This document shows, in pieces, positions 1 through 26,702 of a stretch of 64,000 nucleotides of DNA (positions within the stretch are counted from its first letter, which is position 1; each line of letters opens with the position of its first letter). This DNA comes from a virus. The notes under the pieces were generated by a model. That model was not told the origin of the DNA. It worked only from the letters and a program-made list of their open reading frames with translations, and did not search any database. The stretch is taken from positions 1 to 64,000 of the IMG/VR virus record IMGVR_UViG_3300034356_001764. One strand, given 5' to 3'. The position numbers and the translations under genes were made by a program.

Positions 1-3000
1 GTGTACTATGTGTTAGTTCAAATCTACCGTTACCTTCCATACCAAATGTGTAAATACTACCATTTTTTGTAAGTACTTCATTTGTATAACCTTTTAATTT
101 ATCACCAGAAGGAAGATATATAGTATTATAATCGTTAGCAAAAGTCATTCTTCCTTCATTATTATCTACAATACCTAATCCAGAATCATTACCAATTGTA
201 TACACTATTACAGGATAATTTCTTGCTGTTATACTTTCTGTTGTATCTTTATGTGGATATACATATTGATTATCAAGATATATGTTTCCAATTACAGAAT
301 CATAATCTGACATGTCAATACCTAATGAATTTTGAATTTTATCTATTATAGGTTGTAATACACTAATAGAAGGTAATTGATTTCCTTTTTGATCTAAACT
401 ATGATAATTATAATAGTTATTATTAACCCCTTCAAATTTTTGAATTTTAACAGGATTAGCTTTAGGATTATTTCTTGCCCACATTAAACCATAATGAAAC
501 ATTTCATTTGCAAAAGTACCTTTATTTTCTTTATATGTTTGAGCTTGTATTTGTGGTTTTATTAATTCTACAAAATTTTGTGTTTCTTCTTTACTAGGAT
601 TAGTTTCAGCTTGTACAACACCATAATCTTCTGATATTACTTTAACATTAGTAGATGGTTGAGTAGTAATTAATTTATCAAAGTTTTCATGAAACACAAT
701 ATTATTTGGTATAGGTCCCGCAGCAATAAACATATCTGCCATTTCTTGACCTGTATAACCATTAAGATTAGTTCCAGAATAGTCTGATACTAAAAATTCT
801 TTATAACCTCTATTAGCTAAATCATAAAGCTTTTTGATACTAGAAATAATTTGCTCAGGTGATATAGATTTTAAACTGTTATTTTCTTTAACTCTTAAAT
901 CTTTAGTAGGTAAAGCATAACTTTGTCCTTGCAAACCTTCTCCCTGCCCATACATAGCTCCAAAATTATCTTTTGCATATTTAGCAGCACCAGCACCATG
1001 TCTTCCTTCAGGATTACTTCCAAATACAAATATTTGATTAGGTGCCAACTTAGTTACTTTTCCAGAGTATGTTTTTCTAGTAGTAGGTTCAACACTAGTA
1101 GATGATTGAGTAGTTCTTAATTGTTCTACTACTTCAGCTAATGCTGTAGGATGCATACCCTGACCTCTAGCTTCAGATTTACCAGCATATAGTAATGTAA
1201 CTCCATCAAGTTTACCTTGATTAATCTGATCAAGTATCCAGTTTCTTTGTTGTGGTTTTACGTCTTTATGATTAGTTCCTAACAACCATTCTTTATAAGC
1301 TACAACCGCTGCACCTATACTAGGAACTTTTATTGTACCCCCATAACCAGCTTCACTAAAAGGATTACCAAAGTTTTCAAAAGCATTAGTATTACTTGTT
1401 CTCATAGTATTAACACCTTCTGCAGTGTAAACTGGTCTTGACTCTAAATCACCTTTCCATTGTCTTGATGTATCTATTGTAGGTTTAACACTAGTAGCTG
1501 GTTGAGTAGAAGCTTCTTCAGCACTCTGAGCCTTAGCAAGCATGTCTTCAATCATTGGAGTATTAGCATCCATGATTACTTCTTCTTCTACAGGTTGAGC
1601 AACTGGCTTAGGAGCTATGTATGTCTTAGGATCTCTTACAAAATTAGTAAAGTCTCTATTAGGTGAATCAAGCATTAACTCAAAGATGTTTCCAAGAGTA
1701 TTCTCATTTAACTGTTTCTCCATGAATAGTTTTGAAGCAGATTGCATTACACCTAAGAATTCATTATAAGGAAGTGCTTCATTGAAACCATACTTACTGT
1801 ATCCTATACCATGTTGATACATGCTCATTATAGGGAGCAGGCCAAAAAGCTTACTGATTCTTTTGTTATCTGTAGGGTCTGTAACTTTCTTTACATTTTC
1901 ATCAGCCAAGTCTTTCAGATTTTCAAAGTAAATCTCTGCTAACTGAGGATCTTTCAACATTGCTTTATCATTCAAAGTTAAAACTCTTTCTCCAGTCTTA
2001 ATGTTTGGTATAGTAAGCTGACTCAAGATTGGGTATCTTCCTTTAAGTTGAGAGAATTCTTCTATCATATCCAAGACCATGTCTGTATATGATTGACCCT
2101 CAATACCCATAATTGCTTTTCTATTGAATGCATTAATTAATGCTCTTTGATTTATGTAAGCTTCATAAGCTTCTTTATCATTGGCAGTTAACTCACGCAT
2201 TTTTTTGAAGTCTTTGTTTTCTAATACAGACTCAAGTGAATATAAATTTCTTTGATTCTCTCTTTCAAACACATATCTAAAATAGGCAGCTTCTGATTCA
2301 AATATTGCTGAAGTTCCAAACCCTCTTAATCCACTTTCAGAATAATTGCCGGGCATAGTATTATTCCTGTAATACAAACCTTCTTGATATTCTTTTCTAA
2401 GCTTTGCCTCATCTACAAACAATTTCCCATCAATGATCTCTGCACCATTCTTTACTCCAACTTTACTGACAACATCCATCTTATTAAAGTTCTTAGGCAT
2501 ACTTGTTAGTTGGCCATTCTCATCAACAAAGTTGGACATATAGTTTTGGAAGATATAATTTGGAATAGCATTTTTGAACTGAGTAATAAAATTTCTTGTT
2601 CCGTCCTGACCTTTTCCAAATCTTTTTGCAACTGCACCAGCTCTTTCAGTACTTGTTTTCAAGATAAAGTTAGTTACAGTATCATTATTTCTAAGTGGAA
2701 ACAATGGAACAATAAGATCACTGATTAATCTATTGTCAAAGAAAGTACCAAGTACAGTTTCTTTTAATTTATCTACTGTGCCTTCTTCAATCTTAGACAT
2801 TTGTTTAGCATCTTCCAATGACATGTTTCTTCTTATTACTTCTTGTAAAGTTTTAGAAGTCTTAGTATCTGGATTAGATAAGAACTTAAGTGTAGTAAAC
2901 CCGCGGCTAGATTTTTCTAGCTCAATAAAATGAAGGAACATTGCTTCCATATGATTTCTCAAAGCGGGTTCATTTGGATTCTTAATGATTTTTCTCATTA

Positions 3001-6000
3001 GTTCAATATCAAACTCACCTTTAGAATTTAAAATACCTGAAGCACCTGTTGCTTTAGTAACAGCATTATAATATTTTTTCTGACTTACTTTCTGTGCCCC
3101 ATCTTTAATACCAAACTTTGCTAAAGCATTTACTGCTGCCTGGTATTTACCCATGGTTGCTATAAAATCTTCTTCAATTGTTCCTGTAACTTTTGAGTAT
3201 GCACCCTTAATTATTCTTTGTTGTTTTGCATACTCTCTAACAATTGGATTTGACGCAAATAGAATTGCAGTTTCTTTAGGTACACCGGCTTTTAGTAAGA
3301 AAGTAATCATTGGAGTGATCTCATAATTACCTTGAATAAAGAATATCCATGCATCTTTCTCAACATCCACAGCACCATTCATCATTTGTGAAAATAATTC
3401 ACCAATGTTATCCATACCGTCTACAGTATCTGTACCTGAAAGAGAAACTCTACCATCTTGAGTTTTGTTATGAGGCAACATTAGTCTTACATCATAATCA
3501 TTTTTTCCATCAACATATCTTCCAAGACTTTGATCAAACACTGAATCTTTATATGTTGCTGGCATGGATATACCTATTGAATTAAAGATTGGATGTAATG
3601 CATTTTCTACAGCAATCATACCCAACACTCTCTTAGCAATCGTGTTTACATCATGTTTGTGTAAGTTGTAACCTACCTCAAGAATTCTTGTTGGGCTAAT
3701 CACTTTAGCACCTTTCTGATTAACTCTATATTCCTTACTATTCACATTCTTAAATCTGTTATACTCAATAACATCATCTTGAATTACATCAGCTATTTCA
3801 TCTTTTAATAAGTATGTATCATTTGGTCTTACTAATGATGCATAATTATCTGGCAACTCAAGAATACCTTTAATTGTATTGATTAATCTGTTTTCTAAAG
3901 CTGCTTTCTGTTTCTTAATTAAAGCTCTGGCAACTTTACTTCCTCTTTCATTTCCAGATAATTCATTTACTTTTTTAAGAACTTCATCATTAGTCAATCC
4001 TGTTTCAACATATTGACCATTACTATCTATGCTAGGCATAAATGTTGTCAACTTATCAACATCATAATCAGCTCCTGATTTAGCAACAATTTCTGATGGT
4101 GGAATAATAATATTTCCTGCTGCTGGATCTAAGAACTCATAGATTTCCATGAACTCCATTGAGTTAATACCCTGAACTGGGATACGTACTGCAGATATTG
4201 TTACTGCTTTACGGTTATTATTCAAGTCCAACCACTTGTCATCCTTAATCATTTCATTAAGTCTTTCTCTTGTTGCAATAGGTTGACCGTCTAAGTGGTT
4301 AAGTTTAAGCAAGTTAGCAAAGTCTCCTTGAAGTGCAACAGCAACTTTCATTGCTGCCGTCTTACCATCAGCTGTATCATTATTATAGAAAGGTAAATTA
4401 TTAGTACCCATGTACTTTAATATATCTGCCTTAGTAGCTTTCTTAAGTTTGCTATCCCACATTCCATTGGACATAGAACTAGCAACTTGAACTAATGCTT
4501 CACCTTTTACTTTTTGTTTTATTAATCTTTTTTCTACAAGAGAAACAAGAATCTTTTCAATATCATCAGCTTTAAGGTGCAGAGACAAATCTGTTTTAAT
4601 AGATTTATCTCTATTGAGCCCTACCATTTGTATCAAATGCTCAGGAAGATCTCTTCTTTCAAGTTCTCTTTGAACAACATCTAAGAAGTCTTGTATGTTT
4701 CCAGTATACTTACCAGTCTTTGGATTATACTCATATCCAATTTCATGAAGTAATTCAAGCTTTAGAATATTACTATAAGCATCAACGGCAGCTTCATATG
4801 ATTTTACTGCAACTGAGTTTTTAGGATTGATAATTTTACCATTTCTGTACATACCTCCCAAGATCAACTTTCTTAACTGAGTTGAGAACACAGTTTTGTT
4901 TTTAAACTTGTTAGGTACATTAGTTACATTCTTAAGATTCTCAAGGTAAATAACATTTGGTGTAAATGCAATATCTCTTTTTAAAGACTTTTGATCTTTA
5001 TCATCATAAATCTTATCTGCTACTGCTTCACCTTTATCATTTACTTCAGATGTAACACTACCAAGCTTTGAACCAGTTTGGAATGTAACATACTGAATAT
5101 TCTTAGTCATCATTTGTCTATGAAGATTTTCAAGATCTGAACCAGCAATAACACTAGGGATTAATGGAGCTAATGCAAACTTGTGCATTGCATTTACTGG
5201 AAGACCAGTATTGGCTAAGTTACCAAAGTTTTGTACTTTGTATACAGGGAAGAATTCTTTTATCTCACTTGTAGTTACATTGTCTCCTTTAGCAATTCTC
5301 TGAAATAATATTTCTTGCTCATTAGACCAAGCATTTTCAAGATGTCTTAGTGTCCGGTATGCATCAAAAGTGATAAAGCCTTGCCCATCTCCTTCTTCCA
5401 TTCCTTTATACTTACTAAGTTCTATCTCTAATCTTTTATTAATTATCTTTTCAGCATTTGGAATTCCTGCATTTTTATATCTTGCTTCATAGTCTTTTCT
5501 AAGTCCCTTTTCAATTTGACCAAGATATTCTGAATCTCTAATTACATCTTGAATAATTGCAGTATTGAAAGTTCCATTGTAAGCAATTGCAGAAATGCCT
5601 TGTTTTTTAGCATAAGATGTAGTGGCTAAGTAACCATTAACAAATTTTCTTGCTGCTATGTCAGATCTAAATCCAGGGCCCCCAGATGTAGCTCCAGTAT
5701 TTCTCTTGTGCATCTCTTCTTTGTAGTGATTGTATTGAGCAAAGTCACCATAGAAAAGAATACCCATTTCAAAGTTATGTATCCAAGAATTATAAGTATA
5801 AGCTTCAACAAGCTTTTGTTCTACTTGATCATCTGATAGATTAAATATTTTCATTCTATCTTTAAGATCTTGAGAAATATATTTTGATTCCTGAAGCATC
5901 TCAAGATTTTCTTTAGCTTGTCTGTCAAAGTATTTCTTTACATCTCCTCTTAATACACCAAGTGCACCTGTAGTGTCTGCTTTTAGAAATGTACTTAAGT

Positions 6001-9000
6001 TAAATAGAGTCTTATTCTTAACTGCAGAGTCAATAGCATCATAGATTTGTTTCTTTAGTGAATCTGAGATAACATCATCAAAGGCTGTAAATTCTTCACC
6101 TGCCATTCTTCCACTACTGAGCACTCTATTATAGCCAGCATATTTCTTAAACTCATCTTTGTTAATCTTGAATCTGTAGATTCTTTCAGCCTCTGCTTCC
6201 ATGTAAGGAAGTAAATGAGCCTTTAATGCATAATCAAATGCAGTTCCTTTACCAAACATGTCAAGGTCAACCCAAAGTTTATTATCTCCACCTTCTTTAC
6301 CTGGTAGACCAATAACTCCTCCTTCAATTCTAGCACCAAAAGACGAAGACTTAGAAGCATGTCTCATAAATTCTTGCACACCATCTTTTAACATAGTATG
6401 CATTTCCTGAATCATCTTACCATTTACATCTAAACTTGTTGTGTTAAATCCATCTTCATTCTCAACTTGAGTTCCAGAGTTTGCAAATAATAAAAATGAT
6501 CTTGTTGTTCTTCTTGATTGCTCAGGAGACTTCAAGTCATACAATGATCTGATTATACCTAATCTATTTGTGTAAGAGTTAATAGCAGGGTCCATATAAG
6601 ACATATACTTAAACTCATCACTGGTCCAAAGATCAGAAAGTTTCTTTGCATTATTTAATGCATATACTTGTTTGCTAATTGTATGATTGTCAATAAATTC
6701 AGAGACAAGATTCTTTTCAGCATTAAGCACCATAGAATTAGATGTTCTAGTACCATATCTTGCTTCAAGACTTGCAATTGCAATTACTTTATTTTTCTGT
6801 ACAATTTCTGTAGCACCAATAATATTAGCAGGAATTCCTTTTGATAAAACTTCAATTGGGTTTTCTCTAAAATTACTAATCAAACTTCTTACAGTACTAC
6901 TAGTATTTGGAAGTTGTTCTTTCTCATGCAATTTTTTGATGATCTCAAAAATATATGGAAGACCAAACTCTTCAATTGTTTTGTTATCTTTCTTAAGTGT
7001 ATTTTTGATAATACTTAAATCACTCAAGTTGAATCCAATAGCTCTTGCAAAAGCATATGATTGATTTACATCTAACTTACCTTGAGATGAAAAACTATCA
7101 ACTACTTTTCCAAGATTAAGCATTGGTGTATTATCTCTACCAACTCTTTCTACATATGGATTATACTGATTTGCTCTGAAGTTTTCTCTAAACATTCTTA
7201 CAATGTTCCCAACTTCATTAGAAGCTTCAGTTACTTGTGCATCATAATCATAAACAGGAACTGTTTTCTCTTCTCTAGTGAATTGATTGTACTCAATTTT
7301 CTCACCCGTCTGATTCTTAAACACAGTAAGCTGAATATAAGGTACTCTAGTTTTACTAAAGTCTTGCCAGAAAGATGTTGTTGCTTGAAATTCAAATGCA
7401 TTATTAGTAAATACAGTTGGGTTAGCAAGCTTTGACTGCACAAGTTGTTTAAACTCTGGTACAGTTTCACTTTCTTGCATGAGCTTATCATACATTTGCT
7501 GTGGATCCTGAATGCTGCCAATTGCTCTTACTGTATTATTCCAAGTACTTCTAAAATCAGCAAGCTTCTTAAATCCTAATTCATTGTATTCATACTCTAC
7601 TTGACCCGTCTTCTTATTAATCTTTGCTTGATACAAACTTTTTAGAATGTAAAGAGTTTCCTTACCAGCTAATTGAATAAGTGACTTATCATTATTTTTT
7701 TGATCCCCAAATCTTTCAGTATCAGCCGCATTCTCAGGCTCAACAAGATTTCCTTCTTCATCTAATTCTAATGCAGTATACTTTTGTCTTACAAGGTCAT
7801 AAGAACTATTCTCCACATGGTATTGTACAAGTCCGGATTTTGTGTCCCCATAGTTTTCAAGACCAGTTTGTATAATCCTAATTCTGTTTTGTAGTATGTC
7901 CCTTTTATATTCATTCTCTTCATTCTCAGGAGTTTCCTCCAATTGTGTTTCATAACCCTTTAACTTCTCTTCTAGATTTTGCTTAATCATATTATAAAGA
8001 GGCTCACGGTTTCTTTTATCCAAAAGAATACTTAATGTTGCTCCCTTATTATCTCTTTTACTTACTTCATTATCAATGATACCAGAGATAATAGAATCCA
8101 TACTATCTTTCAATAAGTTGGAATCTTGTCTATTTAATACTTGATCTGTCTCAGTACCTGGTTTAACTATACCACTGTTTCTATAGAGCAAGTCAAACAT
8201 AACATTGTCTATAAGTGGTGTGTAGTTATTCAGATTCTTACCTAAATATAAATTATCAAATAATTCTTTTACTGTACTTATCTCAGATAGATTTGTAACT
8301 GAACCTTTTCCAAATAATGCTTTTAAGAAATCAAGTATTTTTCTAAAAAGACTATTTCTTTTTGGTGCATCTTTTACTGTCTTTTGATTCTTTGCATAAT
8401 CTCTAAACTCCTCAGCAAGTAATTCTTCAATTTCAAAGAAGCTTAAGCTTTTACCTGTTCTTCTAAGTACTTCATTGTATAGAGCCTTCTTTTCAGCTTT
8501 AGTGAGATATAACTGAGAGAAACCATGCCAAGCTTCATGATAAACATCAACCATATTTCCAGTAGCTGCAACTTCAATCATACCTAGGTTGCCATTTAAT
8601 GCAGCACCATAAGCAATAAATCTTGCATAAGCATTAGAGTTAACAATGTTTGCTACTTGTTTAAGTCCAATGTGTTTATTTAATGGAGAGTTTGCCCACC
8701 ATTGTTTAGCATCTTCTACCTGCTCAGTAGATACATCAGATGGAAGGTCTCCTTTTCTTAGGAAGAATACATCACCGGCCCCATTGCTTTCTGGAGTTGG
8801 AACATTCTTTGGATCAATATAACTGTTAATCTCATTCTGAACTTCTTCAATTGATTTAGCTTTAGTTACTTGAGGAGCAAATGCTTTATCAAATTCCTTC
8901 TGAATGATTTCCATCTCAGTTTTACTTGGGCTTCTGAAAGTTGAATAAAGATCAAGCACCTCTTGCATGGTTTCTTTTGTAAACCGTCCAGCATTATTTT

Positions 9001-10957
9001 TTAACTGGTTAGTTAAATAAGTTGACATGTAGTAATTATCCTTGTGAGTCTTACCTGTCTCTTGATCAACAACCGTTTTCCATCCTCTTGCCTCTGTTGA
9101 AATGGCTTCTTTCATTAGATTGTTGAACATCTCCTCTCCTGGAGTAAGACTTTCATCCATCATAGACTCAAAGAAGTCATCTTTATTAACTGTTTCAGTT
9201 GACTCTTGAGCTTTTGCTAGTTGTTCTGTGAACTGATTTGGTAAAGCAAAACCCATGTAACTGTTAAATGATCTACTGTTAATAGATATATCTGCAAAGA
9301 TTTTAGTATTGGGAAGCCCTTTAATTAAAGCAAAGTAATCTTGGTAATCATCTGACAATGTGTTAGTTGCCACATCATAATCTTGATAACCTTTCTCTAT
9401 TGCTTCATCACTATAAGTCATTTTGGCCGCATAGTACTTACCATCTTTTCCTGAAGCATTTGTTAATGCATCAGTAATTTGTTGAAATGCTTCTGGTGAG
9501 TTAAGATCTACTGGTTCAAACTCACTATATCCTTCAGCAAAAGTTGTTAGAGAATATGAGAACATTAGTTTATCTGTTTTCTCTAAATAAACTAAATCAT
9601 GCTTTCTTGTATCATTTGATGCCTTGTCAGCCAAGAACTGAGATACATAACCATACTTCTCTTTGTTTGTTAAATTTTTGTTGGTCAAAACAGAAGCAAT
9701 CTTTTTAGTAAGTTCTGCAGTTAAGTTTGGACGGTCAACTTCATATTCAACACCTTTGATTGTAATTACACCTACTCCTTTTTCAAAACCAGAACGTGGA
9801 GATTTAACAACAGATAATGTTCTTATGGCATGATCATTATCTTCTAGTATAATACTGATATTAGATAAGTTTAATGCATTTGGTTTAATCTCACTAATCC
9901 CCTCGCTAACACCAACTATGTCTACTAAAGGTGACTCACCTTTAATAAGCTTTTCTCTAAACTCATAGAGCTCTTTAAATTCATCCTGTTGTCTTTCTTG
10001 TGCTTCTTCTAATGTGATACCTGATTTCTCAGCTAGAATAGCAGGGTCTATAATTTGTTCTGACCTTCCGTAGATATCTGTAACCTTAAACTTATTCCCA
10101 TCCTTTCTAACCTCTCTTAAGAATTGATAAACAAGTCGGCCACCTTCAGCAACTATATCTCCTTGTTCATTAAACTGTAATGGAATACCATCTTTATCAG
10201 AGATAACCATTAGAAATATATTATCTGGTGTTGTTACATAGTCTTGTGCTTTACCTGATCCCTTCAAATAAGCTGCTCTAGTGACCAATCTCTTTGTTGT
10301 CTTATCTAATAGATTCTCATCTACTTCAGATAACCTTACAGGCTTTAACTTAAGTATAGTATCTTGATATACAAGTTCTCTTAATGGAGTATTGTTATTT
10401 GCTTCTTCTCTAATTGCTGCAAGAGTAGAATAAATTGTTCTTCTTCCTGGATCAAAAGTTTCTGTTTGAATATCTTCATTAGGACTCTTAGAAATAAATT
10501 CCTGAAATGTAGTTGACAAAGATGAATATGTCTGATAGTTAAAGGGATCAGCAGGAACTGTATCACTAGTTTTCTCAGCAATATGAAATGCTTTTAATGC
10601 TTTCTTTTCAATAAGTTCTTTCTCAACATCCGGATCTAGCTGTGGTCTAAAAAATTTAATAGTATTATCAATACCATTCTCAGACTTCTTAAACTTTTTA
10701 ATAAGTGGTTTTAATGAGTCTGTTTTAATTTCAAAGTCTTCCAGAGCTGGACGGAAAGATGCAGTTCCAATCATAGATGGAACTTGTTGCATAAACTTAG
10801 CTGCAGTATCTACATCAGAGTTTTTTGCAATCTTATTGAACAAATCCTTCATGTATTGCTCAGGATTGAACGCGTCTCCTTGTTCAACCATGTTTCCATA
10901 CACATTAGAATATAATTTTTTAATCTGAGATTCAGATAAAGCACATTGTATTTTCAT
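1..10957 (-). CDS. Giant virion-packaged DNA-dependent RNA polymerase polyprotein (crAss-like, phi14:2 gp66-type) with zincin domain and C-terminal accessory cassettes; 3' end outside window
   Basis: Not in the ORF track. ATG at 10957 (MKIQCALSESQIKKLY...). Manual translation of large parts finds these motifs in the same frame: zincin HEAWH...EELLAEEF (~8405-8545), EGDGQGFITFD (~5365-5395), RIPVQG...SGADYDVDKL catalytic DxDxD (4055-4069). The frame is still open at position 2. Not every codon was checked. Confidence 0.9.
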   Translation of the reverse strand, partial: MKIQCALSESQIKKLYSNVYGNMVEQGDAFNPEQYMKDLFNKIAKNSDVDTAAKFMQQVPSMIGTASFRPALEDFEIKTDSLKPLIKKFKKSENGIDNTIKFFRPQLDPDVEKELIEKKALKAFHIAEKTSDTVPADPFNYQTYSSLSTTFQEFISKSPNEDIQTETFDPGRRTIYSTLAAIREEANNNTPLRELVYQDTILKLKPVRLSEVDENLLDKTTKRLVTRAAYLKGSGKAQDYVTTPDNIFLMVISDKDGIPLQFNEQGDIVAEGGRLVYQFLREVRKDGNKFKVTDIYGRSEQIIDPAILAEKSGITLEEAQERQQDEFKELYEFREKLIKGESPLVDIVGVSEGISEIKPNALNLSNISIILEDNDHAIRTLSVVKSPRSGFEKGVGVITIKGVEYEVDRPNLTAELTKKIASVLTNKNLTNKEKYGYVSQFLADKASNDTRKHDLVYLEKTDKLMFSYSLTTFAEGYSEFEPVDLNSPEAFQQITDALTNASGKDGKYYAAKMTYSDEAIEKGYQDYDVATNTLSDDYQDYFALIKGLPNTKIFADISINSRSFNSYMGFALPNQFTEQLAKAQESTETVNKDDFFESMMDESLTPGEEMFNNLMKEAISTEARGWKTVVDQETGKTHKDNYYMSTYLTNQLKNNAGRFTKETMQEVLDLYSTFRSPSKTEMEIIQKEFDKAFAPQVTKAKSIEEVQNEINSYIDPKNVPTPESNGAGDVFFLRKGDLPSDVSTEQVEDAKQWWANSPLNKHIGLKQVANIVNSNAYARFIAYGAALNGNLGMIEVAATGNMVDVYHEAWHGFSQLYLTKAEKKALYNEVLRRTGKSLSFFEIEELLAEEFRDYAKNQKTVKDAPKRNSLFRKILDFLKALFGKGSVTNLSEISTVKELFDNLYLGKNLNNYTPLIDNVMFDLLYRNSGIVKPGTETDQVLNRQDSNLLKDSMDSIISGIIDNEVSKRDNKGATLSILLDKRNREPLYNMIKQNLEEKLKGYETQLEETPENEENEYKRDILQNRIRIIQTGLENYGDTKSGLVQYHVENSSYDLVRQKYTALELDEEGNLVEPENAADTERFGDQKNNDKSLIQLAGKETLYILKSLYQAKINKKTGQVEYEYNELGFKKLADFRSTWNNTVRAIGSIQDPQQMYDKLMQESETVPEFKQLVQSKLANPTVFTNNAFEFQATTSFWQDFSKTRVPYIQLTVFKNQTGEKIEYNQFTREEKTVPVYDYDAQVTEASNEVGNIVRMFRENFRANQYNPYVERVGRDNTPMLNLGKVVDSFSSQGKLDVNQSYAFARAIGFNLSDLSIIKNTLKKDNKTIEEFGLPYIFEIIKKLHEKEQLPNTSSTVRSLISNFRENPIEVLSKGIPANIIGATEIVQKNKVIAIASLEARYGTRTSNSMVLNAEKNLVSEFIDNHTISKQVYALNNAKKLSDLWTSDEFKYMSYMDPAINSYTNRLGIIRSLYDLKSPEQSRRTTRSFLLFANSGTQVENEDGFNTTSLDVNGKMIQEMHTMLKDGVQEFMRHASKSSSFGARIEGGVIGLPGKEGGDNKLWVDLDMFGKGTAFDYALKAHLLPYMEAEAERIYRFKINKDEFKKYAGYNRVLSSGRMAGEEFTAFDDVISDSLKKQIYDAIDSAVKNKTLFNLSTFLKADTTGALGVLRGDVKKYFDRQAKENLEMLQESKYISQDLKDRMKIFNLSDDQVEQKLVEAYTYNSWIHNFEMGILFYGDFAQYNHYKEEMHKRNTGATSGGPGFRSDIAARKFVNGYLATTSYAKKQGISAIAYNGTFNTAIIQDVIRDSEYLGQIEKGLRKDYEARYKNAGIPNAEKIINKRLEIELSKYKGMEEGDGQGFITFDAYRTLRHLENAWSNEQEILFQRIAKGDNVTTSEIKEFFPVYKVQNFGNLANTGLPVNAMHKFALAPLIPSVIAGSDLENLHRQMMTKNIQYVTFQTGSKLGSVTSEVNDKGEAVADKIYDDKDQKSLKRDIAFTPNVIYLENLKNVTNVPNKFKNKTVFSTQLRKLILGGMYRNGKIINPKNSVAVKSYEAAVDAYSNILKLELLHEIGYEYNPKTGKYTGNIQDFLDVVQRELERRDLPEHLIQMVGLNRDKSIKTDLSLHLKADDIEKILVSLVEKRLIKQKVKGEALVQVASSMSNGMWDSKLKKATKADILKYMGTNNLPFYNNDTADGKTAAMKVAVALQGDFANLLKLNHLDGQPIATRERLNEMIKDDKWLDLNNNRKAVTISAVRIPVQGINSMEFMEIYEFLDPAAGNIIIPPSEIVAKSGADYDVDKLTTFMPSIDSNGQYVETGLTNDEVLKKVNELSGNERGSKVARALIKKQKAALENRLINTIKGILELPDNYASLVRPNDTYLLKDEIADVIQDDVIEYNRFKNVNSKEYRVNQKGAKVISPTRILEVGYNLHKHDVNTIAKRVLGMIAVENALHPIFNSIGISMPATYKDSVFDQSLGRYVDGKNDYDVRLMLPHNKTQDGRVSLSGTDTVDGMDNIGELFSQMMNGAVDVEKDAWIFFIQGNYEITPMITFLLKAGVPKETAILFASNPIVREYAKQQRIIKGAYSKVTGTIEEDFIATMGKYQAAVNALAKFGIKDGAQKVSQKKYYNAVTKATGASGILNSKGEFDIELMRKIIKNPNEPALRNHMEAMFLHFIELEKSSRGFTTLKFLSNPDTKTSKTLQEVIRRNMSLEDAKQMSKIEEGTVDKLKETVLGTFFDNRLISDLIVPLFPLRNNDTVTNFILKTSTERAGAVAKRFGKGQDGTRNFITQFKNAIPNYIFQNYMSNFVDENGQLTSMPKNFNKMDVVSKVGVKNGAEIIDGKLFVDEAKLRKEYQEGLYYRNNTMPGNYSESGLRGFGTSAIFESEAAYFRYVFERENQRNLYSLESVLENKDFKKMRELTANDKEAYEAYINQRALINAFNRKAIMGIEGQSYTDMVLDMIEEFSQLKGRYPILSQLTIPNIKTGERVLTLNDKAMLKDPQLAEIYFENLKDLADENVKKVTDPTDNKRISKLFGLLPIMSMYQHGIGYSKYGFNEALPYNEFLGVMQSASKLFMEKQLNENTLGNIFELMLDSPNRDFTNFVRDPKTYIAPKPVAQPVEEEVIMDANTPMIEDMLAKAQSAEEASTQPATSVKPTIDTSRQWKGDLESRPVYTAEGVNTMRTSNTNAFENFGNPFSEAGYGGTIKVPSIGAAVVAYKEWLLGTNHKDVKPQQRNWILDQINQGKLDGVTLLYAGKSEARGQGMHPTALAEVVEQLRTTQSSTSVEPTTRKTYSGKVTKLAPNQIFVFGSNPEGRHGAGAAKYAKDNFGAMYGQGEGLQGQSYALPTKDLRVKENNSLKSISPEQIISSIKKLYDLANRGYKEFLVSDYSGTNLNGYTGQEMADMFIAAGPIPNNIVFHENFDKLITTQPSTNVKVISEDYGVVQAETNPSKEETQNFVELIKPQIQAQTYKENKGTFANEMFHYGLMWARNNPKANPVKIQKFEGVNNNYYNYHSLDQKGNQLPSISVLQPIIDKIQNSLGIDMSDYDSVIGNIYLDNQYVYPHKDTTESITARNYPVIVYTIGNDSGLGIVDNNEGRMTFANDYNTIYLPSGDKLKGYTNEVLTKNGSIYTFGMEGNGRFELTHST
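644..667 (-). repeat. 24-nt in-frame linker repeat copy 3 (TTQPSTNV)
   Basis: ACTACTCAACCATCTACTAATGTT on the minus strand, 23/24 match to the consensus of three copies. Confidence 0.9.
1091..1114 (-). repeat. 24-nt in-frame linker repeat copy 2 (TTQSSTSV)
   Basis: ACTACTCAATCATCTACTAGTGTT on the minus strand, 23/24 match to consensus. Confidence 0.9.
1487..1510 (-). repeat. 24-nt in-frame linker repeat copy 1 (STQPATSV)
   Basis: TCTACTCAACCAGCTACTAGTGTT on the minus strand, 22/24 match to consensus. Confidence 0.9.
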
Positions 10958-10960
10958 AGC

Positions 10961-13900
10961 TTAACATTTCAAGTCTTCTAATAACTCAGCATCTAATTCT
11001 TTAATTGTTTTATTAGAAACAGTTTTCTCAAGTTCCGTTAATTGGTCAGGACTATTCAGTATAGTATCAGCTAAATCTGATGACTGAGTAACCATTTCCT
11101 GTTCTTCTTTAGTAACAGGTTCTGTAACTTGTTCTGTTGTATCCATTACTGTATCTTTTAATATAAACATTTCATTTAACTTATCAAAGCCTACAGTCAT
11201 TTCTTCTGTACTTCCCATAGGAGTAACTGTAACAGTTTTCTTTGTTTTATCAACTGACTTGACTACAAGAGTATCATTTGTCATTGCAAACATTTTTGCA
11301 TCATCAAAGATAATCTCTTTTGCTATAACTTGAGTACCTTCTGTTAAACCAATTGGATCAATTTTTACAGTTCCCGCTTTTATTTCTGCAGCTTTTTGTT
11401 TAGCTAATTCAGACATTACTTGCAAATCTTCAAATGCAACAACCTCTTCAGAAACTTTAATGTGTAAGTCTGAAACAATTTGCTGTAGCTCATCCATTGT
11501 TTTAACTTTTGCAATATCTACTTTGAAGTCATTAATTGAATATCTTTTACTATCATCAATTACTTCTACTTTTCTAGAATCACTATCCTGTGTTGGTGAA
11601 TCAACATCATCACTTGACTGTGGATCTTCTGGAATTGTATCAGCAGTAGATATTTGTGTTTTAGATAATGAACCAGGTCCATAAAAAGATTTAGCATCAT
11701 ATATTACATAAAAAGGATCAATCTTTTCATTACCGATTATATGATTAATAACCTTTACACCTTTTACTTCTGGATTTGATTCTTGAAAATCATTGAATAA
11801 GTCTATTGCTGATCCTGGACTATCTTTTAAAGTATTTGTATCATCATATTCAGTTTTTGAACTTCCTCCTACATAACTTCCACCTTGAGGTGTAGACTTA
11901 CCCATTTGAGGATTATTAAACTTAAATCCTTTAGCTACCAGCATGTCATACATTGCTTTTTGAGACATGTTAGCATCTATAACTATAAAGTCAGAATCTT
12001 TAACTTCTCCTTTAATAGGATTTCCATATCTATTAACAAAGAAGGGTGTAGTAGTAGAGGCTGCATTTAAACCATCTCCAAACTGACTTATTTGATCAGT
12101 ACCTCTTTGAAAATTACCAAAATTAAAATCTTGAGCTTTTACATTTGTATGATGATAAACAGTAACAATATTAGAAGCAGTAGTAGAACTACTTTCTAAA
12201 GCAGCTAGTTCTGCATCATATTTAGCATTGATTTTATCAGCTGCATTAGGTTTTTTATTACCAGCTTCTCTTGATTTTTTAATAGCTTCTCTTGCTTGTT
12301 CAACACTTTCAAAAATTAAAGTATTAACTTCTGCCGCTTGAACCATTACCCCATCTTTTTTAATTAGTGGTTTAATAGTTCTTGATACAGGTGATGGTAG
12401 ATCATCTACAGTAACTTCTTCACCTCTTTTTTCTAAATTATTTATCTTTAATTCTATTGCATTAGCTTGTTCTTCTGTAAGAATATCTTTTTCACTATTA
12501 TAAAAATCTATACCTTCTATTATTGTATTCTCTCCGTATTTAACTATATTGTAATCTACTATCTCATAACCTTGTTCTTTTAATTTTGCTTTAGCTTCTG
12601 ATAATTGTTGTTCTTGTTCTTTTGAAAGTAGTGTGCCTTGGTTTTTATTTTGTTCAATATTTACTATTGCATTAGCAACTTGTTCTGGTTTAGTTGCTTC
12701 TGATAAACTATTAAAACCTTTTGTTAATTGCTTTTGACCGAGTTCATTTAATTCTTCTTGTCTTCTTCTTTTTATATCAGCTTTTTTAGATTCTATGTCA
12801 GATACAGTTGTTGTAGCAGGTTTATTTAAAGCATCTAATTCTTCATCATATTTTTTATTAATATTTTTAACATCTTCTATTGCATATACTTTAGTTAGTT
12901 CTGCTTCATTTTTTGGAGTACCATCTTTTTTTAGTTTATATGCTTCTAATTCTTCTTGTCTTCTTTTTTCTATCTTAGCTTTTTGTACTTCTACATCAGA
13001 TGGTTTAGCTTTAGCAGCCTCTTTCTCACTCATCTTACGGAGCTCTTCATTGATCTCAGAAGTTTTATCCTGGAACATTTCTTTCTCTTGTTGAGTAAGG
13101 TCTGTACCATTCTTAACTTTTTCTGCAATCTTAGTGATACGGCCAGCTTTAACTATACCATTGTCAACAAAATTATCATACTCATCAGCAGTAATTTCAT
13201 CTGATACCTTAGCATCATTCTTAGTTCTTGTATTGATAAGTTTTTCAAGGTCTTTAGAGATGATGCTATACTTAGACTTGTTAGTCATATCTTCAGTAGT
13301 AGGATTTTCACTCTCACTAATATCCTTAATCATCTTGTCAAATCTTCTTTTCATTTTCTCAAGGTCTTGAATAGTTTTAAGATCTGCCGTCTTAACCATC
13401 TTGCCTTGATACATGAATTCAAATTCTTCTTTCTCACCAGTTTCTTTAGTAGCTTCATCAAGCTTTTGCTCTTTGTTATAAGTATCAATAAGCCCTTTTG
13501 CAATTGGATCACTTTGAAGAAACTTTTCAAACAAGTTTCTTTCTTGCTCAGGATTCATATTTACATACTCCTCAGAATCCATTTTCTTAATAACTCTTTC
13601 ATTGAACTCTTTATTAAGCTTGTTATACAAAACAGGGGAACGTGTAATAATATCTTCTAATGAAGTAGCTGAAGTAATTGGTTCTAATTCTGAAGTCTTT
13701 TTTTCTTTTTCTTTTTTCTCAACCTCTTCTACTTGCTCAGTATACTGATTGATCCTGTCTTCTTTAAGCTCTTCATATCTTTTTTCAATCTCCTGAGTAT
13801 ATTCTGGGTTAGGTCTTTCTGCAATGATATAAGTTTCTACAGAAGTAAATGTAACTGGTACTGTATCAACTTGAACAAGATCTCCCTCAGCATCATTCTC

Positions 13901-20392: not shown

Positions 20393-22696
20393 TTATAGGA
20401 AGATTGGCCAATCAGTATAGACGTATCCTGTTGTACTACCACCTTTCTTTTTATATTTATTTAAAAGGTATTTTTCAGCAGACTCTTTACTAAATCCTTG
20501 AGACATCAATTCTTTTAATTCTTCTCCCATTGTTGCTTGTTTTGCTCCTGGATCAACTTGTTTATCAGTAGGAGTATATTCTACACGTCCCCCAACACCT
20601 GGTCTAGTTTGATAGTTAGGATACATTTGATTCAATGCATCTGTCTTCATTTTATTAGTAAGTGCTGTATTGTAAGCTTGTCTCATATTTGCAGCACCCT
20701 GTCTTTTAGCATTTTCAAACTGTTGATTAGCAATAACATTTTTGTCATAAACTCTATTAGCCATTTGCTGATTCATCTGGTTCTCTTGGTTTCTTACACC
20801 AACTTGATTTGCTTCAAACTGATTAGCAATGTTTACATTCTGATTGTTAATTCTACCAAGTGTATCTGCTGCTGCTCTAGCTCCTTGACCTTGTATCTGA
20901 GATAACCTTGCATTCAATGCTTGAGGACCTGCAAATGAAGCAGCTGCTTGAGATGCAATATTAGCTTGTTCAGATTGTGCAGCTAGTTCTCTTGTAGGAT
21001 CTAAGAATGTAGGTCTTGGTTCTTCAAGATCAACTCTTGCTTCCCATGGCATAAATTTCTTAGCACTCATCATATCACCAAATGCACCCATAGTATTTAC
21101 AGTATCTTGTAACCACCATTCTGGTTCTCTTTGCGCTGCTGGAGTAACTGCTTGTTGTTCTTCACCTGGTTCTTCACAATCTTTACAACTACCATCAGCA
21201 TTCATACCTGGATCATATGTAGTACCATCTGCTCTATCGCATTCACATCTTTCTTTTGGCTTACATGTTTCAGGCATACATTCACCTTTCTCATTCTTCT
21301 GAGCAAACTTTCCTGCAATAGCTACACCTTTATCATCAAGACACGGACATTCTGTTGATACTGGTTCTTTTTTTACTTCTTCTATTGGTTTTACAGGATC
21401 TAATTGTCTTACACCAAAATAATTATCTACATAGGCATCTTGCAATTGTTCTAGTATTTTAGGATCTTTTAATTGTTCTTCAGTAAATTTACCTGACCCA
21501 TCTTTACTCAATGCTTTTAATTTTGCATTCTTCATACCTTTAGCTGTAAGACCATGCGTTGTCCACATATTCTTAATACTTTCAGGATTGTTTTTTAAAG
21601 TCCACTCATAAATAGCTTTTTGTGCTTGACCTTCTGTCATTTTACCAATACCTGGAATACTACTTTCCCATTGCTTTAAATAATCATTTAAAGATTGTTT
21701 ACGTGCACTAAACTTATTTGATGTACCAGTTGGAGTTACATTTCCTTGTTGTGTTTTTGCTTGTTCATAAGGTGTTATAATTCCATCTTGTGCTTGTGGT
21801 ATATAACCTCCATAAGCCATTTCATTTGACTCATAAGGAAATTCAAAGCCTCCCATTGACATTCCATACATTGCCATTGGTTGACCACCATAAGCCATAG
21901 GAGGTTGTTGTTGCATCATTTCCTGAGCAGCCATATCTTGCTCCATAGATTGAGGTTGAGCTATCTGTTCCCCGTTTGGCATTTCCATTGGTATCTCTTC
22001 CATACCTTGCATTTCAGGAGATTCCCTCATTTCTTGCTGTGGCATCTGCTGTTGTGGTTGTGGTTTTTGTGGTATTAAGTCTTCTTCAGAAATTCCATTA
22101 GACTCCATATAAGGTTTTGACAATTCAGGTATACCTTGAGGAAATCCTTTCTTAGACTCTTGAGCTAATGCTAAGGCACCAAGTTTCATGGTGTAATTCT
22201 TAATCATCATCTCAGCAGTCTTTCTATCCATCTTATCTGAATTAGGATCTTGAAGTATTTTTCTATACCTGTTAAGATCATATTTCTTAGATAAGTCAGC
22301 CGGAGTGTATCCACCTTTCTTAGGATTAGCATTAAACATTTTTAGAATAGTTGGGTCTGAAATCTTCATTGACTTAGTATCACTAAAAATAAAACTATCA
22401 TCTGGTAAGTTTAATGGAACACCTCCACTACTGTGACGTGGGCCAGTAATTGTAAAAAATGATGGCATCATACTACCATCAATATTTCCTATTACAGTTT
22501 CTCCACCTTCAGCTTCTAGATTAGCTTCTTCTCTTGGAACTGCAGATATTGTTCTTTTTACCTCAGATGGTTGCTCACCAATATATGCATTGTAATCAGC
22601 ACCACCAAATGCTGGTACATCATTAACCAAACCGCCTCTAACTTGATAGCCTGTTCTAGCTTTTGGTACAGATTTAATTCTTACTCTTCTTAACAT
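20393..22696 (-). CDS. Virion cargo protein (767 aa) with N-terminal EAEGGE...GPRHSSGGV domain and Gln/Ala/Asn-rich C-terminal coiled coil
   Basis: EANLEAEGGETV...ITGPRHSSGGVPLNLPDDSFIFSD motif; pilot/ejection-like QNA-rich C-terminus; MAYGG motifs. Confidence 0.65.
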   Translation of the reverse strand: MLRRVRIKSVPKARTGYQVRGGLVNDVPAFGGADYNAYIGEQPSEVKRTISAVPREEANLEAEGGETVIGNIDGSMMPSFFTITGPRHSSGGVPLNLPDDSFIFSDTKSMKISDPTILKMFNANPKKGGYTPADLSKKYDLNRYRKILQDPNSDKMDRKTAEMMIKNYTMKLGALALAQESKKGFPQGIPELSKPYMESNGISEEDLIPQKPQPQQQMPQQEMRESPEMQGMEEIPMEMPNGEQIAQPQSMEQDMAAQEMMQQQPPMAYGGQPMAMYGMSMGGFEFPYESNEMAYGGYIPQAQDGIITPYEQAKTQQGNVTPTGTSNKFSARKQSLNDYLKQWESSIPGIGKMTEGQAQKAIYEWTLKNNPESIKNMWTTHGLTAKGMKNAKLKALSKDGSGKFTEEQLKDPKILEQLQDAYVDNYFGVRQLDPVKPIEEVKKEPVSTECPCLDDKGVAIAGKFAQKNEKGECMPETCKPKERCECDRADGTTYDPGMNADGSCKDCEEPGEEQQAVTPAAQREPEWWLQDTVNTMGAFGDMMSAKKFMPWEARVDLEEPRPTFLDPTRELAAQSEQANIASQAAASFAGPQALNARLSQIQGQGARAAADTLGRINNQNVNIANQFEANQVGVRNQENQMNQQMANRVYDKNVIANQQFENAKRQGAANMRQAYNTALTNKMKTDALNQMYPNYQTRPGVGGRVEYTPTDKQVDPGAKQATMGEELKELMSQGFSKESAEKYLLNKYKKKGGSTTGYVYTDWPIFL

Positions 22697-22704
22697 AGCT
22701 TAAA

Positions 22705-25700
22705 TTATAAATATTCAACTTCTCCACCATTAGCAATAAAGTTTGCTAATTCTTCTTCTGTCATATCAACTTCATCCCCTTCTACATAGTCAGGATCTTC
22801 ATTAAGATAACTATTTTGACCACCCATTTGTGCAGATCTACTATTCCAAGTTTGACCCATTTGATCTGGTCTATACAAACCAGTATTGGTATCATAGTCA
22901 CCACGGTCTCTACTAGGATCACTTGCATATAGATTATCAGCAGTAAGATTTTTATACATTTCTTTCTCGTTCTTTCTATTCTGCATTCTATCAATAAATC
23001 CTAAAGCTCCTTTAGCAGCTGCATTACCTGTTAACAATGCACCTTGTACTGAAGCATTGTTCATCCCAGCTTTAGTTTTAAAGTCATATGTTACATCACC
23101 TTCTGGCTCATAAACTTTTTGAGTTTGCTGTCTTAAAGCTTGATTTGGATCTATAGTATATTGTTTTGGATCTTGTGATTGATTTCTTGTAGGATTATCA
23201 ACATTCATGAAACTTGTTAAAGATGATTCATCTAAACCTTGAATACCAGGGTTAAGAGATAACATATCAACATCTGTAGTTCCTGCCATTGCTGGATTAT
23301 TAGTATATACTACTGGAGATTGAACACCATTCTGAGCAGTAGGTATAAACTTTCTTAGACCACCACCATATTGTTTCTTTATTCCTTTTTGATTAGTTAC
23401 ATATTGATTGTAGATTCTATCATATGTTTCAATGTCTTTAAGATTACTAAAATCAGGAACTACCCCTACCTCTTTTGCAAAAGCCATCCTAGCTTCATTT
23501 GCAGGTATATTCCATTTCTTAGCCCAATCACTAACAAACTGATTTACTTTTGAAGACTTATCACTAATTTTATTAAAAGCATCTTCACTCTCATACCAAT
23601 CACCATCTTTCCATATTCCTTCATTCTCAGGAACTGCTCCTGTTTTTTGAGAATCAGATTCTAAATTTGGCATTTGTTTATATCCCCATGGACTTTTTTG
23701 AAGTTGTTGATTTATCATTAGCTCTTCTGGAGATACAAGAAGGTTATTTAATTTATTACTTTGTTTAGGAGCTGTATCATAGTTAGCTTGACTATCAAAA
23801 TCTTCTTGTGTAGCAGGCACCTCTTCAAAATATTTTTCATATCTTTTACCAGCCATCAACGGTCTTTGTCTTCCTGCTTGTCTATCACCTCTATCCATTT
23901 CTCTTTGAGATAAAGCCATAGGACCTTTTCCAGGTAGTACTCTTTGTTCATCAGAACCATCTAAACTAATCATTGGTTTAGTTGGATCAGAGCTTTCATT
24001 ACTAAAAGTAACTGAATACTTCTTAGGTCTTCCGCTTAATAAACCTGTTTTTTGAACATTGATATTTTTAATCTGTGCATTTTGTCCAAGATAACCAGGA
24101 ATCTGTTGTCCAGTAGCATCACGTGCACCCATATATTGAGTACGGTAATTTGTATTTAAATTGGCAGGAATTAAGTTTTTAAACAAACCTCCTCTTTGAA
24201 AGTAAGCATCTGTTACATCTTCTGAGCCTGTGTAATCAATATCAGACTGGTCAATATAAGCAAGTGATGGATCATCATTTCCTCCATAAACAAATCTTTG
24301 AAGATTACCATACTCATCAGAAAAAGGATCTTGTACAATACCACCCTGTTGGAAAGTTGAACCGCCAAATTTATTTTCTATCATGTCACCACCAAAACCA
24401 TCATTCCAGCTTTCTTCACTTTCCTTACCAGATCTATTTGGTAATTCATTCCAAGGAACATAAATTACACCACCATAATCTTGTGATTGTTCAACAGCAG
24501 CAAAACTTTTTTCAGGAATTATTTTGCCGTTAGCATCTCTTACAATCTGATATCTTGCAGGTTTTACTGTCCCCCAATTTGTTTTATATGTAGATTCAAA
24601 TGAAGTAGCTTGTTCACCTTTTTTAGTGTTCCATTGTTTTTCATCACTACCTTCTTCAAATTTTCCAGTATTAGGATTAAATCCATAGTTTTTACTACCT
24701 ACAGGTCTTCCCCATTGGTCTTTTTTAACTTGAGGAACTGTTGGTTTTACTTTAGCTTTTGGCTGAATGTAGGGTATAGCATTTTTTTCTAATGCATTTA
24801 CTCTACCTTCTACATCTCCAGAAGAAACTTTTTGAAATGAATTTCCTGTACCAGTTGTATCAATGTACCACTGATTATTTTCTTTCTTGTAAATTGCAGT
24901 CTTACTTGGATATGAGTAAACACCATCTGCACGTTTCTGAACATTAACTTCTTTTTGACCTTTTACTTGATCTTTAACAACTTGTTTTTCTTTTGCTGTT
25001 TGAGAACTATTTACAGTAACCGGAGTTTCAGTTCCAGGAGTTTTAACTTCAGTAGTTGCAACTGTTTCTGTTGTACCATCTGGTTTTACTTCAACTTTTT
25101 CCTCAACCTTAACATCTTTATTAGTTGCCTCATTACCTGGGGTAACAGCAGCTACATCTTTATTAGTTTGACTATTTACATAAACAGCATTATCTTCTAC
25201 AATTTTTCTTGCAGGAGTCTTTTTAGCACCAGTATAACCATAACCATAGAAACCTGGTCCACTACCTGGCATACCACTACCTGGCATAACAGATGGCATT
25301 TGCCCAAAGTTAACTGAGTATTCTTTTGGTCTACCAAATATACCTGAACGTCTTACATCCATAGATTCTATTGGTGGATAACCTTGACCAAAGCCTCCTG
25401 GTATTCTTGGAACTCTTGGTTCTCTATTGAACAAACCTCTTCTTTCTTGACCCTCTTGATTTCTTCTTCTAAATAATCCACCAAACTGAGCTTCATCAAG
25501 CATCTCATCATCTTCAGAATAATTCATTGGAGCTTGAGACATCCCCTGTTGCATCATTTGTTGTTGCTGCATCATTTGATCATACTGTTGTTCAGCTTGT
25601 TCTTTAGCAACAGCTATCTGACTTTGATTCTTAAGAGTTCCAATGTAATTATCTAAGATACCTCTTCTTACATTATTTCCAATTGGATCAGATTGATCTG

Positions 25701-26646: not shown

Positions 26647-26661
26647 ATTATATTATATAGT

Positions 26662-26673
26662 TAATATACTAAA
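26662..26673 (-). promoter_or_regulatory. Putative late promoter motif TTTAGTATATTA
   Basis: Identical 12-mer at 39760-39771; both are intergenic and just upstream of a start codon. Confidence 0.5.
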
Positions 26674-26702
26674 TTTTAATTTAACTGTTAAACTTTAAAG
26701 AT

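Follow-up and report, generated by a model that had tools for sequence, protein, structure and literature searches.

A repeated, codon-fixed 24-nucleotide linker between unrelated modules in a giant, putative virion RNA polymerase gene of a lake-water phage

How might a phage protein that carries several unrelated domains behind a conserved core come to exchange those domains without losing its reading frame? The question is raised by a stretch of 64,000 nucleotides (nt), hereafter the window, with which a linear IMG/VR viral contig (IMGVR_UViG_3300034356_001764) begins; the contig has 80,203 nt and is approximately 68% complete. Base 1 of the window is base 1 of the contig, and the 3' end of a giant gene is lost there. 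The best explanation of this gene is that it codes for a polyvalent protein that serves an uncultured crAss-like phage of lake water as its virion RNA polymerase. One unbroken reading frame runs through its core and through three modules (A, B, and C) that are unrelated to one another, and each module is preceded by a copy of the same 24-nt linker. We think it likely that the modules of this polyvalent and probably injected protein are shuffled in frame by recombination at the linker, which would serve as a shared DNA joint.

Linker copies, their codons and homology breakpoints

An earlier note on this sequence had described three near-identical, in-frame linkers spaced 396 and 447 nt apart, and a 24-mer match combined with translation recovered all three where the note had placed them (Table 1), each in frame within the open reading frame (ORF) of the polymerase. 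No match to the 24-mer is expected by chance (100 shuffles). The three copies differ at four bases, three of them at first positions (codons 1, 4, and 5) and one at the second position of codon 7. Each of these differences is nonsynonymous, and eight of eight third codon positions are identical across the copies, in agreement with the note. The additional bases that the note had seen shared by copies 1 and 2 proved to be AACCTAC, which stands directly after the linker in both and encodes K/E-P-T. The linker contains the palindrome ACTAGT. Folded as single strands with their flanks, the three copies do no better than shuffled sequences (z = -0.29, -0.84, and +0.52), and they form no attC-like hairpin. 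A possible fourth, degenerate linker (AQESTETV, window positions 9191-9214) has at least eight mismatches and was not counted.

The degenerate 24-mer, for which the earlier note had proposed a scan of other genomes, is present in 41 further viral contigs, and every match lies in frame inside a large ORF. The peptide encoded at these matches is [ST]TQ[PS]STSV, and the flanking sequences differ widely. These 41 loci were selected by means of the motif, the linker instances are not phylogenetically independent, and all the sequences are metagenomic. A 23-mer of the linker is absent from the 185,579 prokaryote genomes searched, and a cellular origin was rejected on this ground. Linker-bearing ORFs that resemble any window protein always map to the polymerase gene; a few linker-bearing giant ORFs have no detectable similarity to the window polymerase, and two linker-bearing loci that are not polymerase-like are listed in Table 1.

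The neighbors of the linker vary widely. The 79 unique linker contexts comprise 57 flank clusters and 70 different upstream/downstream pairs, and the AlkB-like module (module C in the window) is preceded by seven different upstream clusters. Cassette number, order, and identity differ among the polymerase relatives, as the earlier note had predicted: the order is A-B-C in the window, C stands before A in L030 and L036, cassettes lie N-terminal to the core in L023 and L008, and one lies inside the core in L020.

Homology between relatives frequently ends at the linkers. The closest relative, L058, matches the window gene with 94% nucleotide identity from gene nt 1 to 9455, and the homology stops there, inside linker 1 (gene nt 9448-9471); what follows in L058 is another small domain, a canonical linker, and then an AlkB-like module with just 38% identity to module C. 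The window, L014, and L040 have module A and its two linkers in common, at 87 to 90% nucleotide identity, and this homology ends at linkers 1 and 2; the cores of L014 and L040 are otherwise distant from the window polymerase. For a count of such breakpoints, we collapsed redundant sequences to 97 ORFs and scored interior homology ends that fall within 15 nt of a linker. Among the linker-bearing ORFs of this set, 89 of 314 distinct interior homology ends are at linkers, compared to 4.1 expected under random placement (maximum of 11 in 500 trials), and 46 of 78 linkers are breakpoints. The note's expectation that breakpoints would fall at the linker is thus borne out by these counts and by L058. 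Shared segments usually take in the whole linker at both ends, with left ends peaking at linker positions 2-3 and right ends at positions 24-28.

The window phage sequence is present in many lake-water metagenome runs from 2020 to 2024. Contigs of four lake runs diverge from the window at positions 640, 671, 1081, 1114, 1500, and 1510, which are the three linkers. Linker 1, where lake contigs diverge at 1500 and 1510, is bridged by a contig of X12, and linker 2 is bridged by contigs of X1 and X3; a contig of X15 matches the window at 1081-1114 only and has foreign flanks. In X12, a joint from 669 to 1484 skips 814 positions. The short side of this joint consists of 27 letters that are the linker itself, and we take the joint for a different cassette context rather than for proof that modules A and B were deleted. 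In some runs, parts of the window had no contig cover. The sole other divergence of the lake contigs occurs around a conserved 35-nt island in module B (window positions 1005-1039); in two lake runs, the island is matched by longer foreign contigs, in which the sequence to its left and right is unrelated.

To avoid circularity in the analysis of codons, we fetched 79 polymerase orthologues by core homology and then located linkers by their peptide. In the 25 distinct linkers defined in this way, the third positions of codons 5 to 8 are kept without exception, and nearly every copy of these codons reads TCT ACT AGT GTT. Within linker-bearing genes, the usage of these codons is 0.52 for ACT, 0.38 for TCT, 0.32 for AGT, and 0.44 for GTT. 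Across 284 pairs of linkers with unrelated flanks on both sides, the same codon is used at 96.4% of the sites that encode the same residue, compared to 31 to 71% predicted by codon usage. Synonymous sites of the linker are therefore not freely variable across genomes, and AT-biased codon usage, which the earlier note had allowed as a partial explanation of third-position identity, was rejected as its cause. Changes in the linker are mostly nonsynonymous and occur mostly at first and second codon positions. This pattern of conservation differs from that of selection on the peptide only; given the fixed third positions, it indicates either conservation at the DNA level or copies kept young through repeated exchange.

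Degenerate relatives of the linker, such as PTQPT..., STQQQAPV, and TQPATEAV, are common in more distant genes. STQQQAPV constitutes a second linker type, found in L064, L065, L072, and L074 in four contexts with unrelated flanks, and its codons are almost fixed (ACT CAA CAA CAA GCT CCA GTA/GTT).

The polymerase gene, its modules and its cysteines

By sequence comparison, the core is a homologue of the crAss-like virion RNA polymerase typified by gp66 of Cellulophaga phage phi14:2. The middle of the window protein matches phi14:2 g066, which is annotated as "catalytic RNA polymerase subunit" (tblastn, E = 5e-16), and a BLASTP comparison of the two proteins extends across approximately 600 amino acids (aa; E = 1e-21). 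The phi14:2 record carries a remark on tandem mass spectrometry (MS/MS) evidence for g066. The nearest cultured phages reach approximately 25% identity to the window polymerase at most (tblastn), and a search of the whole polymerase against solved structures returned zero matches. We found no zincin domain with Pfam, applied to the entire protein and to aa 700-960, or with BLASTP against the start of phi14:2 g065. By its homology to phi14:2 gp66, the polymerase protein is probably packaged and delivered at infection.

Table 1. Features of the polymerase gene, its linkers and modules, and two linker-bearing loci that are not polymerase-like (window positions, except for L006 and L028)
Feature	Position	Strand	Basis or description
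Giant gene, putative polyvalent virion RNA polymerase (at least 3,652 aa; runs off contig end)	2..10957	-	ORF list and translation
Polymerase core and N-terminal regions	1511..10957	-	24-95% aa identity with relatives
DYDVD, candidate catalytic Asp triad of two-barrel polymerase	4055..4069	-	Aligns with DFDID of phi14:2 gp66
HEAWH (HExxH), possible mark of zincin-like peptidase	8525..8539	-	Motif only; Pfam finds nothing there
Linker 1, STQPATSV (aa 3150-3157), core/module A junction	1487..1510	-	24-mer match, 2 mismatches
Module A (124 aa), DUF4326-like domain	1115..1486	-	Family matches of relatives only
Linker 2, TTQSSTSV (aa 3282-3289), module A/B junction	1091..1114	-	24-mer match, 1 mismatch
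Module B (141 aa), A1S_2505 family of phage non-structural proteins	668..1090	-	NF049995, phrog_2072
Linker 3, TTQPSTNV (aa 3431-3438), module B/C junction	644..667	-	24-mer match, 1 mismatch
Module C (at least 214 aa), AlkB-like 2-oxoglutarate (2OG)-Fe(II) oxygenase domain	2..643	-	Weak PF13532 match and conserved motif
L006	6893-13369	-	PIF1/RecD-like helicase, then linker and NADAR domain; not polymerase-like
L028	2530-5820	-	Linker, then AAA_33/zeta-toxin-like kinase domain; not polymerase-like

The earlier note had stated that an unrelated domain follows each linker, and the family searches agree (Table 1). The window copy of module A has no Pfam match of its own and no other family match; DUF4326 (PF14216) is matched by 7 of 45 module A relatives, with a best E value of 1.3e-13. 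A first AlphaFold2 (AF2) model of module A, built from 12 sequences, was discarded for its low confidence (predicted local distance difference test [pLDDT] of 61). The second model reached a pLDDT of 94, and neither Foldseek nor VIA-align matched it to a solved fold, with a best Z of 3.2 and NADAR entries only at Z of 2 to 2.9. Searched singly against the sequences in the PDB, modules A and B gave nothing meaningful. Three relatives of module A (L054, L055, and L057) contain only its first 68 aa, fused directly to a different domain without a linker; module A may consist of two units, or breakpoints may also fall inside it.

Module B matches NF049995 (A1S_2505_Nterm) with 105 bits, above the cut-off of 45, and phrog_2072 with an E value of 2.7e-33. 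With tblastn, it has matches in 408 phage records, mostly to small proteins annotated as "hypothetical protein". In some gut crAss-like records, the match lies under "putative RNA polymerase", and no such linker was seen around the match in the one gut crAss-like record inspected (Kolpuevirus). Module C, which is incomplete, scores 23.4 bits against PF13532 (2OG-FeII_Oxy_2), below the gathering cut-off of 31.2. Its H-x-D motif and second His are invariant among eight relatives, and its profile matches a solved 2OG-Fe oxygenase with an E value of 1.5e-4 and ALKBH2 only with an E value of 0.23. The module stops at the contig end approximately 45 to 50 aa short of the conserved TFRR end. Overall, the modules are best explained as independently folding accessory units behind a conserved core, and they would act as effectors for take-over of the host or counter-defence.

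The distribution of cysteines in these proteins is unusual. Among 45 complete orthologues of 3,200 to 4,700 aa, 40 have exactly two cysteines, one at residues 3-5 and the other within the last four residues. The terminal cysteine is present in 49 of 49 distinct C-terminal tails, and cysteine makes up 0.06% of all residues in this set (orthologues L058-L136). In phi14:2 gp66, cysteine occurs only at positions 3 and 2179. The window polymerase has its N-terminal cysteine at residue 5 (window positions 10943-10945), and the upstream window protein of 2,131 aa ends in its only cysteine, encoded by the last codon (window positions 10964-10966). The window's linkers and cassettes, 503 aa in total, are cysteine-free, compared to 2.3% cysteine in other window ORFs. 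Together, the terminal cysteines and the cysteine-free cassettes indicate that the cassettes have the core on one side and a conserved terminal cysteine on the other and follow the same cysteine-free rule. In seven relatives with different arrays (L058, L069, L073, L076, L105, L042, and L043), the protein ends in the same short tail, PEGLPGI(D/P)R..S.C(Q/S), which suggests that the variable region is followed by a terminal element that is conserved.

Elsewhere in the window (positions 20393-31976), three cargo-like proteins of 767, 1,313, and 1,757 aa contain x-x-x-G-G motifs 4, 7, and 9 times, or approximately 5 per 1,000 aa. These motifs are absent from the polymerase and from the window proteins of 2,131, 996, and 1,843 aa.

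Readings of the linker

In the reading that we favor, the 24-nt element would be a flexible, Thr/Ser/Gln/Pro-rich spacer between modules and an in-frame DNA joint at once. Many phages of the gene pool would carry the same 21 to 24 identical bases between unrelated modules, so that a crossover inside the linker becomes possible, with either a co-infecting relative or another linker copy within the same gene as the partner. A crossover of this kind would always give an in-frame protein in which whole modules are swapped, added, or deleted. Repeated exchange would in turn preserve the DNA identity of the linker, and mutated linkers would leave the exchange pool and then decay, which would explain why degenerate variants are so numerous. 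We infer that homologous recombination is the mechanism and that the linker causes the exchanges.

Several points weigh against this reading. Most homology ends (225 of 314) lie away from linkers. The canonical linker occurs in only about 12 of the 79 orthologues fetched by core homology, and many junctions have degenerate or different linkers; the joint is therefore not obligatory. Linker 3, where lake contigs diverge at 640 and 671, is bridged by no contig listed from the four lake runs. Because 41 of the loci were chosen by motif and the linkers are not phylogenetically independent, simple probabilities overstate the significance of the counts. No recombination event was seen directly, and a stretch of 24 nt comes close to the minimum that efficient homologous recombination requires. 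Finally, breakpoints would be enriched at domain borders just as well if selection tolerated crossovers nowhere else.

A more far-reaching proposal is that the joint is a selected DNA signal of a dedicated in-frame domain cassette system, possibly aided by a phage recombination enzyme, with which the population re-assorts its injected enzymes and whose cassettes are pre-adapted to the chain, for example by being cysteine-free. Such a system would be the counterpart, at the level of proteins, of integrons or of the tips of polymorphic toxins. We give this proposal a small but real chance.

Two other explanations place the function of the linker in its peptide. If the linker were mainly a protease recognition site, the polyprotein would be cut at TTQPSTSV in the capsid or after injection, by a peptidase in its own HExxH region or by another phage enzyme, and the modules would be released, with DNA identity as a by-product. 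Zincin domains have been proposed to process polyvalent proteins (Iyer, Burroughs, Anand, de Souza, and Aravind 2017, PMC5512222), and proteolytic processing has been proposed for fused crAss polyproteins (Drobysheva et al., bioRxiv 10.1101/2020.03.07.982082). The eight-residue motif does turn up repeatedly at module borders in varied contexts, module A has TQPST-like peptides beside it even in giant proteins that are far more distant, and the polymerase contains the HEAWH motif. However, the substitutions in the linker are the reverse of those expected from selection at the peptide level, since residues change while third positions are nearly fixed; Pfam finds no peptidase domain in the polymerase, and the cassettes of most orthologues lack the canonical motif. 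The pair of cysteines kept at the extreme ends of 40 of 45 orthologues also counts against cleavage, as it suggests that the intact chain with its cassettes is of importance, up to ejection if not beyond. We consider a role as a protease site unlikely. It is quite unlikely, in our estimate, that the linker is only a flexible spacer without a causal role, in which case nonfunctional recombinants elsewhere would have been purged and the identity of linkers would stem from recent ancestry shared with the neighboring module. Illegitimate joining anywhere along a domain border would not recreate the same 24 bases, yet codons agree almost completely between linkers whose flanks are unrelated on both sides. 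The near-fixed codons of STQQQAPV in its four contexts and the typical inclusion of the whole linker at both ends of shared segments are likewise at odds with a mere spacer, although the composition of the linker is typical of interdomain linkers, its degenerate variants are common, and where flanks are nearly identical, the fraction of same codons is 0.93 in the linker versus 0.97 in the flanks.

The remaining explanations concern a dedicated machinery and the data themselves. In a site-specific, strictly integron-like system, a recombinase or nuclease would recognize the 24-mer and insert or excise cassettes, which would fit the DNA-level fixity of so short a sequence and the palindrome within it. 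We regard such a system as very improbable: no tyrosine or serine recombinase (PF00589, PF00239) was found in the 80,203-nt record of this incomplete genome, the linker folds no better than shuffled sequence, the homology ends do not share one fixed bond but are scattered over the linker, the motif occurs in 41 of 41 contigs only in frame inside ORFs, and no free cassettes were seen. The idea that metagenome assemblers joined different phages at the shared 24-mer, so that the variable arrays are chimeras, is hardly credible. It draws on the facts that the data consist wholly of metagenomic contigs, that the window contig ends inside the array, and that Logan contigs break at linkers. Against it, independent samples yielded the same arrays (L013/L023, L030/L036, L064/L067, and L021/L024), independent runs bridge linkers 1 and 2 in the arrangement of the window, and the k-mers with which final contigs are built exceed 24 nt in length.

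Meaning of the joint and comparison with known systems

Along with their DNA, phages are believed to bring in proteins for host take-over or for the disarming of defences, and how the delivered set changes fast is poorly understood. If in-frame shuffling at the linker is real, so short a DNA joint, at which any exchange of whole enzyme modules is bound to stay in frame, would offer phage populations a simple means of reshuffling the proteins that they deliver, and it would explain the large differences in polyvalent proteins between close relatives. With the linker as a handle, the cassettes of uncultured crAss-like phages can also be catalogued, among them many modules of unknown function, and the linker suggests a natural design rule for multi-domain fusion proteins.

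In the tail fibres of T-even phages, short conserved in-frame motifs known as His boxes serve as recombination points at which related phages exchange segments. The segments exchanged there are receptor-binding parts of a structural fibre, whereas those of the window are whole enzyme domains of a polymerase that is probably packaged; the codon fixity of the linker was measured in the window system. In polymorphic toxins, which PMC5512222 also discusses, recombination replaces a variable C-terminal domain whose border is marked by a short conserved motif (VENN in CdiA, PxxxxDPxGL in Rhs). The linker likewise stands at the borders of variable modules, and the likeness is one of analogy only: the window has several tandem cassettes rather than a single tip, its protein belongs to a phage and probably acts within the infected cell, and no immunity genes or orphan cassettes were seen, although no search aimed at them was made downstream of the polymerase gene in the fetched loci.

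The earlier note had called the array integron-like but translationally fused. The fusion stands, as a single frame runs through all cassettes, and the likeness extends to the ordered arrangement of exchangeable cassettes with a repeated sequence at their borders. The integron machinery does not stand: in contrast to integrons, the array has no integrase in the 80 kb, no attC hairpin, and no separate cassette ORFs, its cassettes being translational fusions. Because neither an integrase nor an attC-like hairpin was found, the comparison with integrons is only an analogy.

The virion RNA polymerase gp66 of phi14:2 (NC_021806 g066; Drobysheva et al. 2020/2021) shares with the window protein a homologous core, an aligned Asp triad, and cysteines near the termini. 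It differs in having 2,180 aa and no cassette array, compared to at least 3,652 aa and three linker-bounded modules in the window protein. The polyvalent proteins of phages and conjugative elements (PMC5512222) are alike in carrying several unrelated enzymatic domains on a scaffold of the virion-polymerase type, in a composition that varies between relatives, and in their presumed delivery with the DNA. They differ in that their typical zincin peptidase is seen here only as the HEAWH motif, with no Pfam match. PMC5512222 does not contain the word "linker" and describes no DNA-identical, codon-fixed, in-frame exchange joint; a full-text literature search for TQPSTSV returned no paper, and we found no published description of a codon-fixed joint. 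Variable polyvalent proteins were already known, and what the window and its relatives add to them is a codon-fixed joint and the statistics of breakpoints at it, from which we infer the mechanism of exchange.

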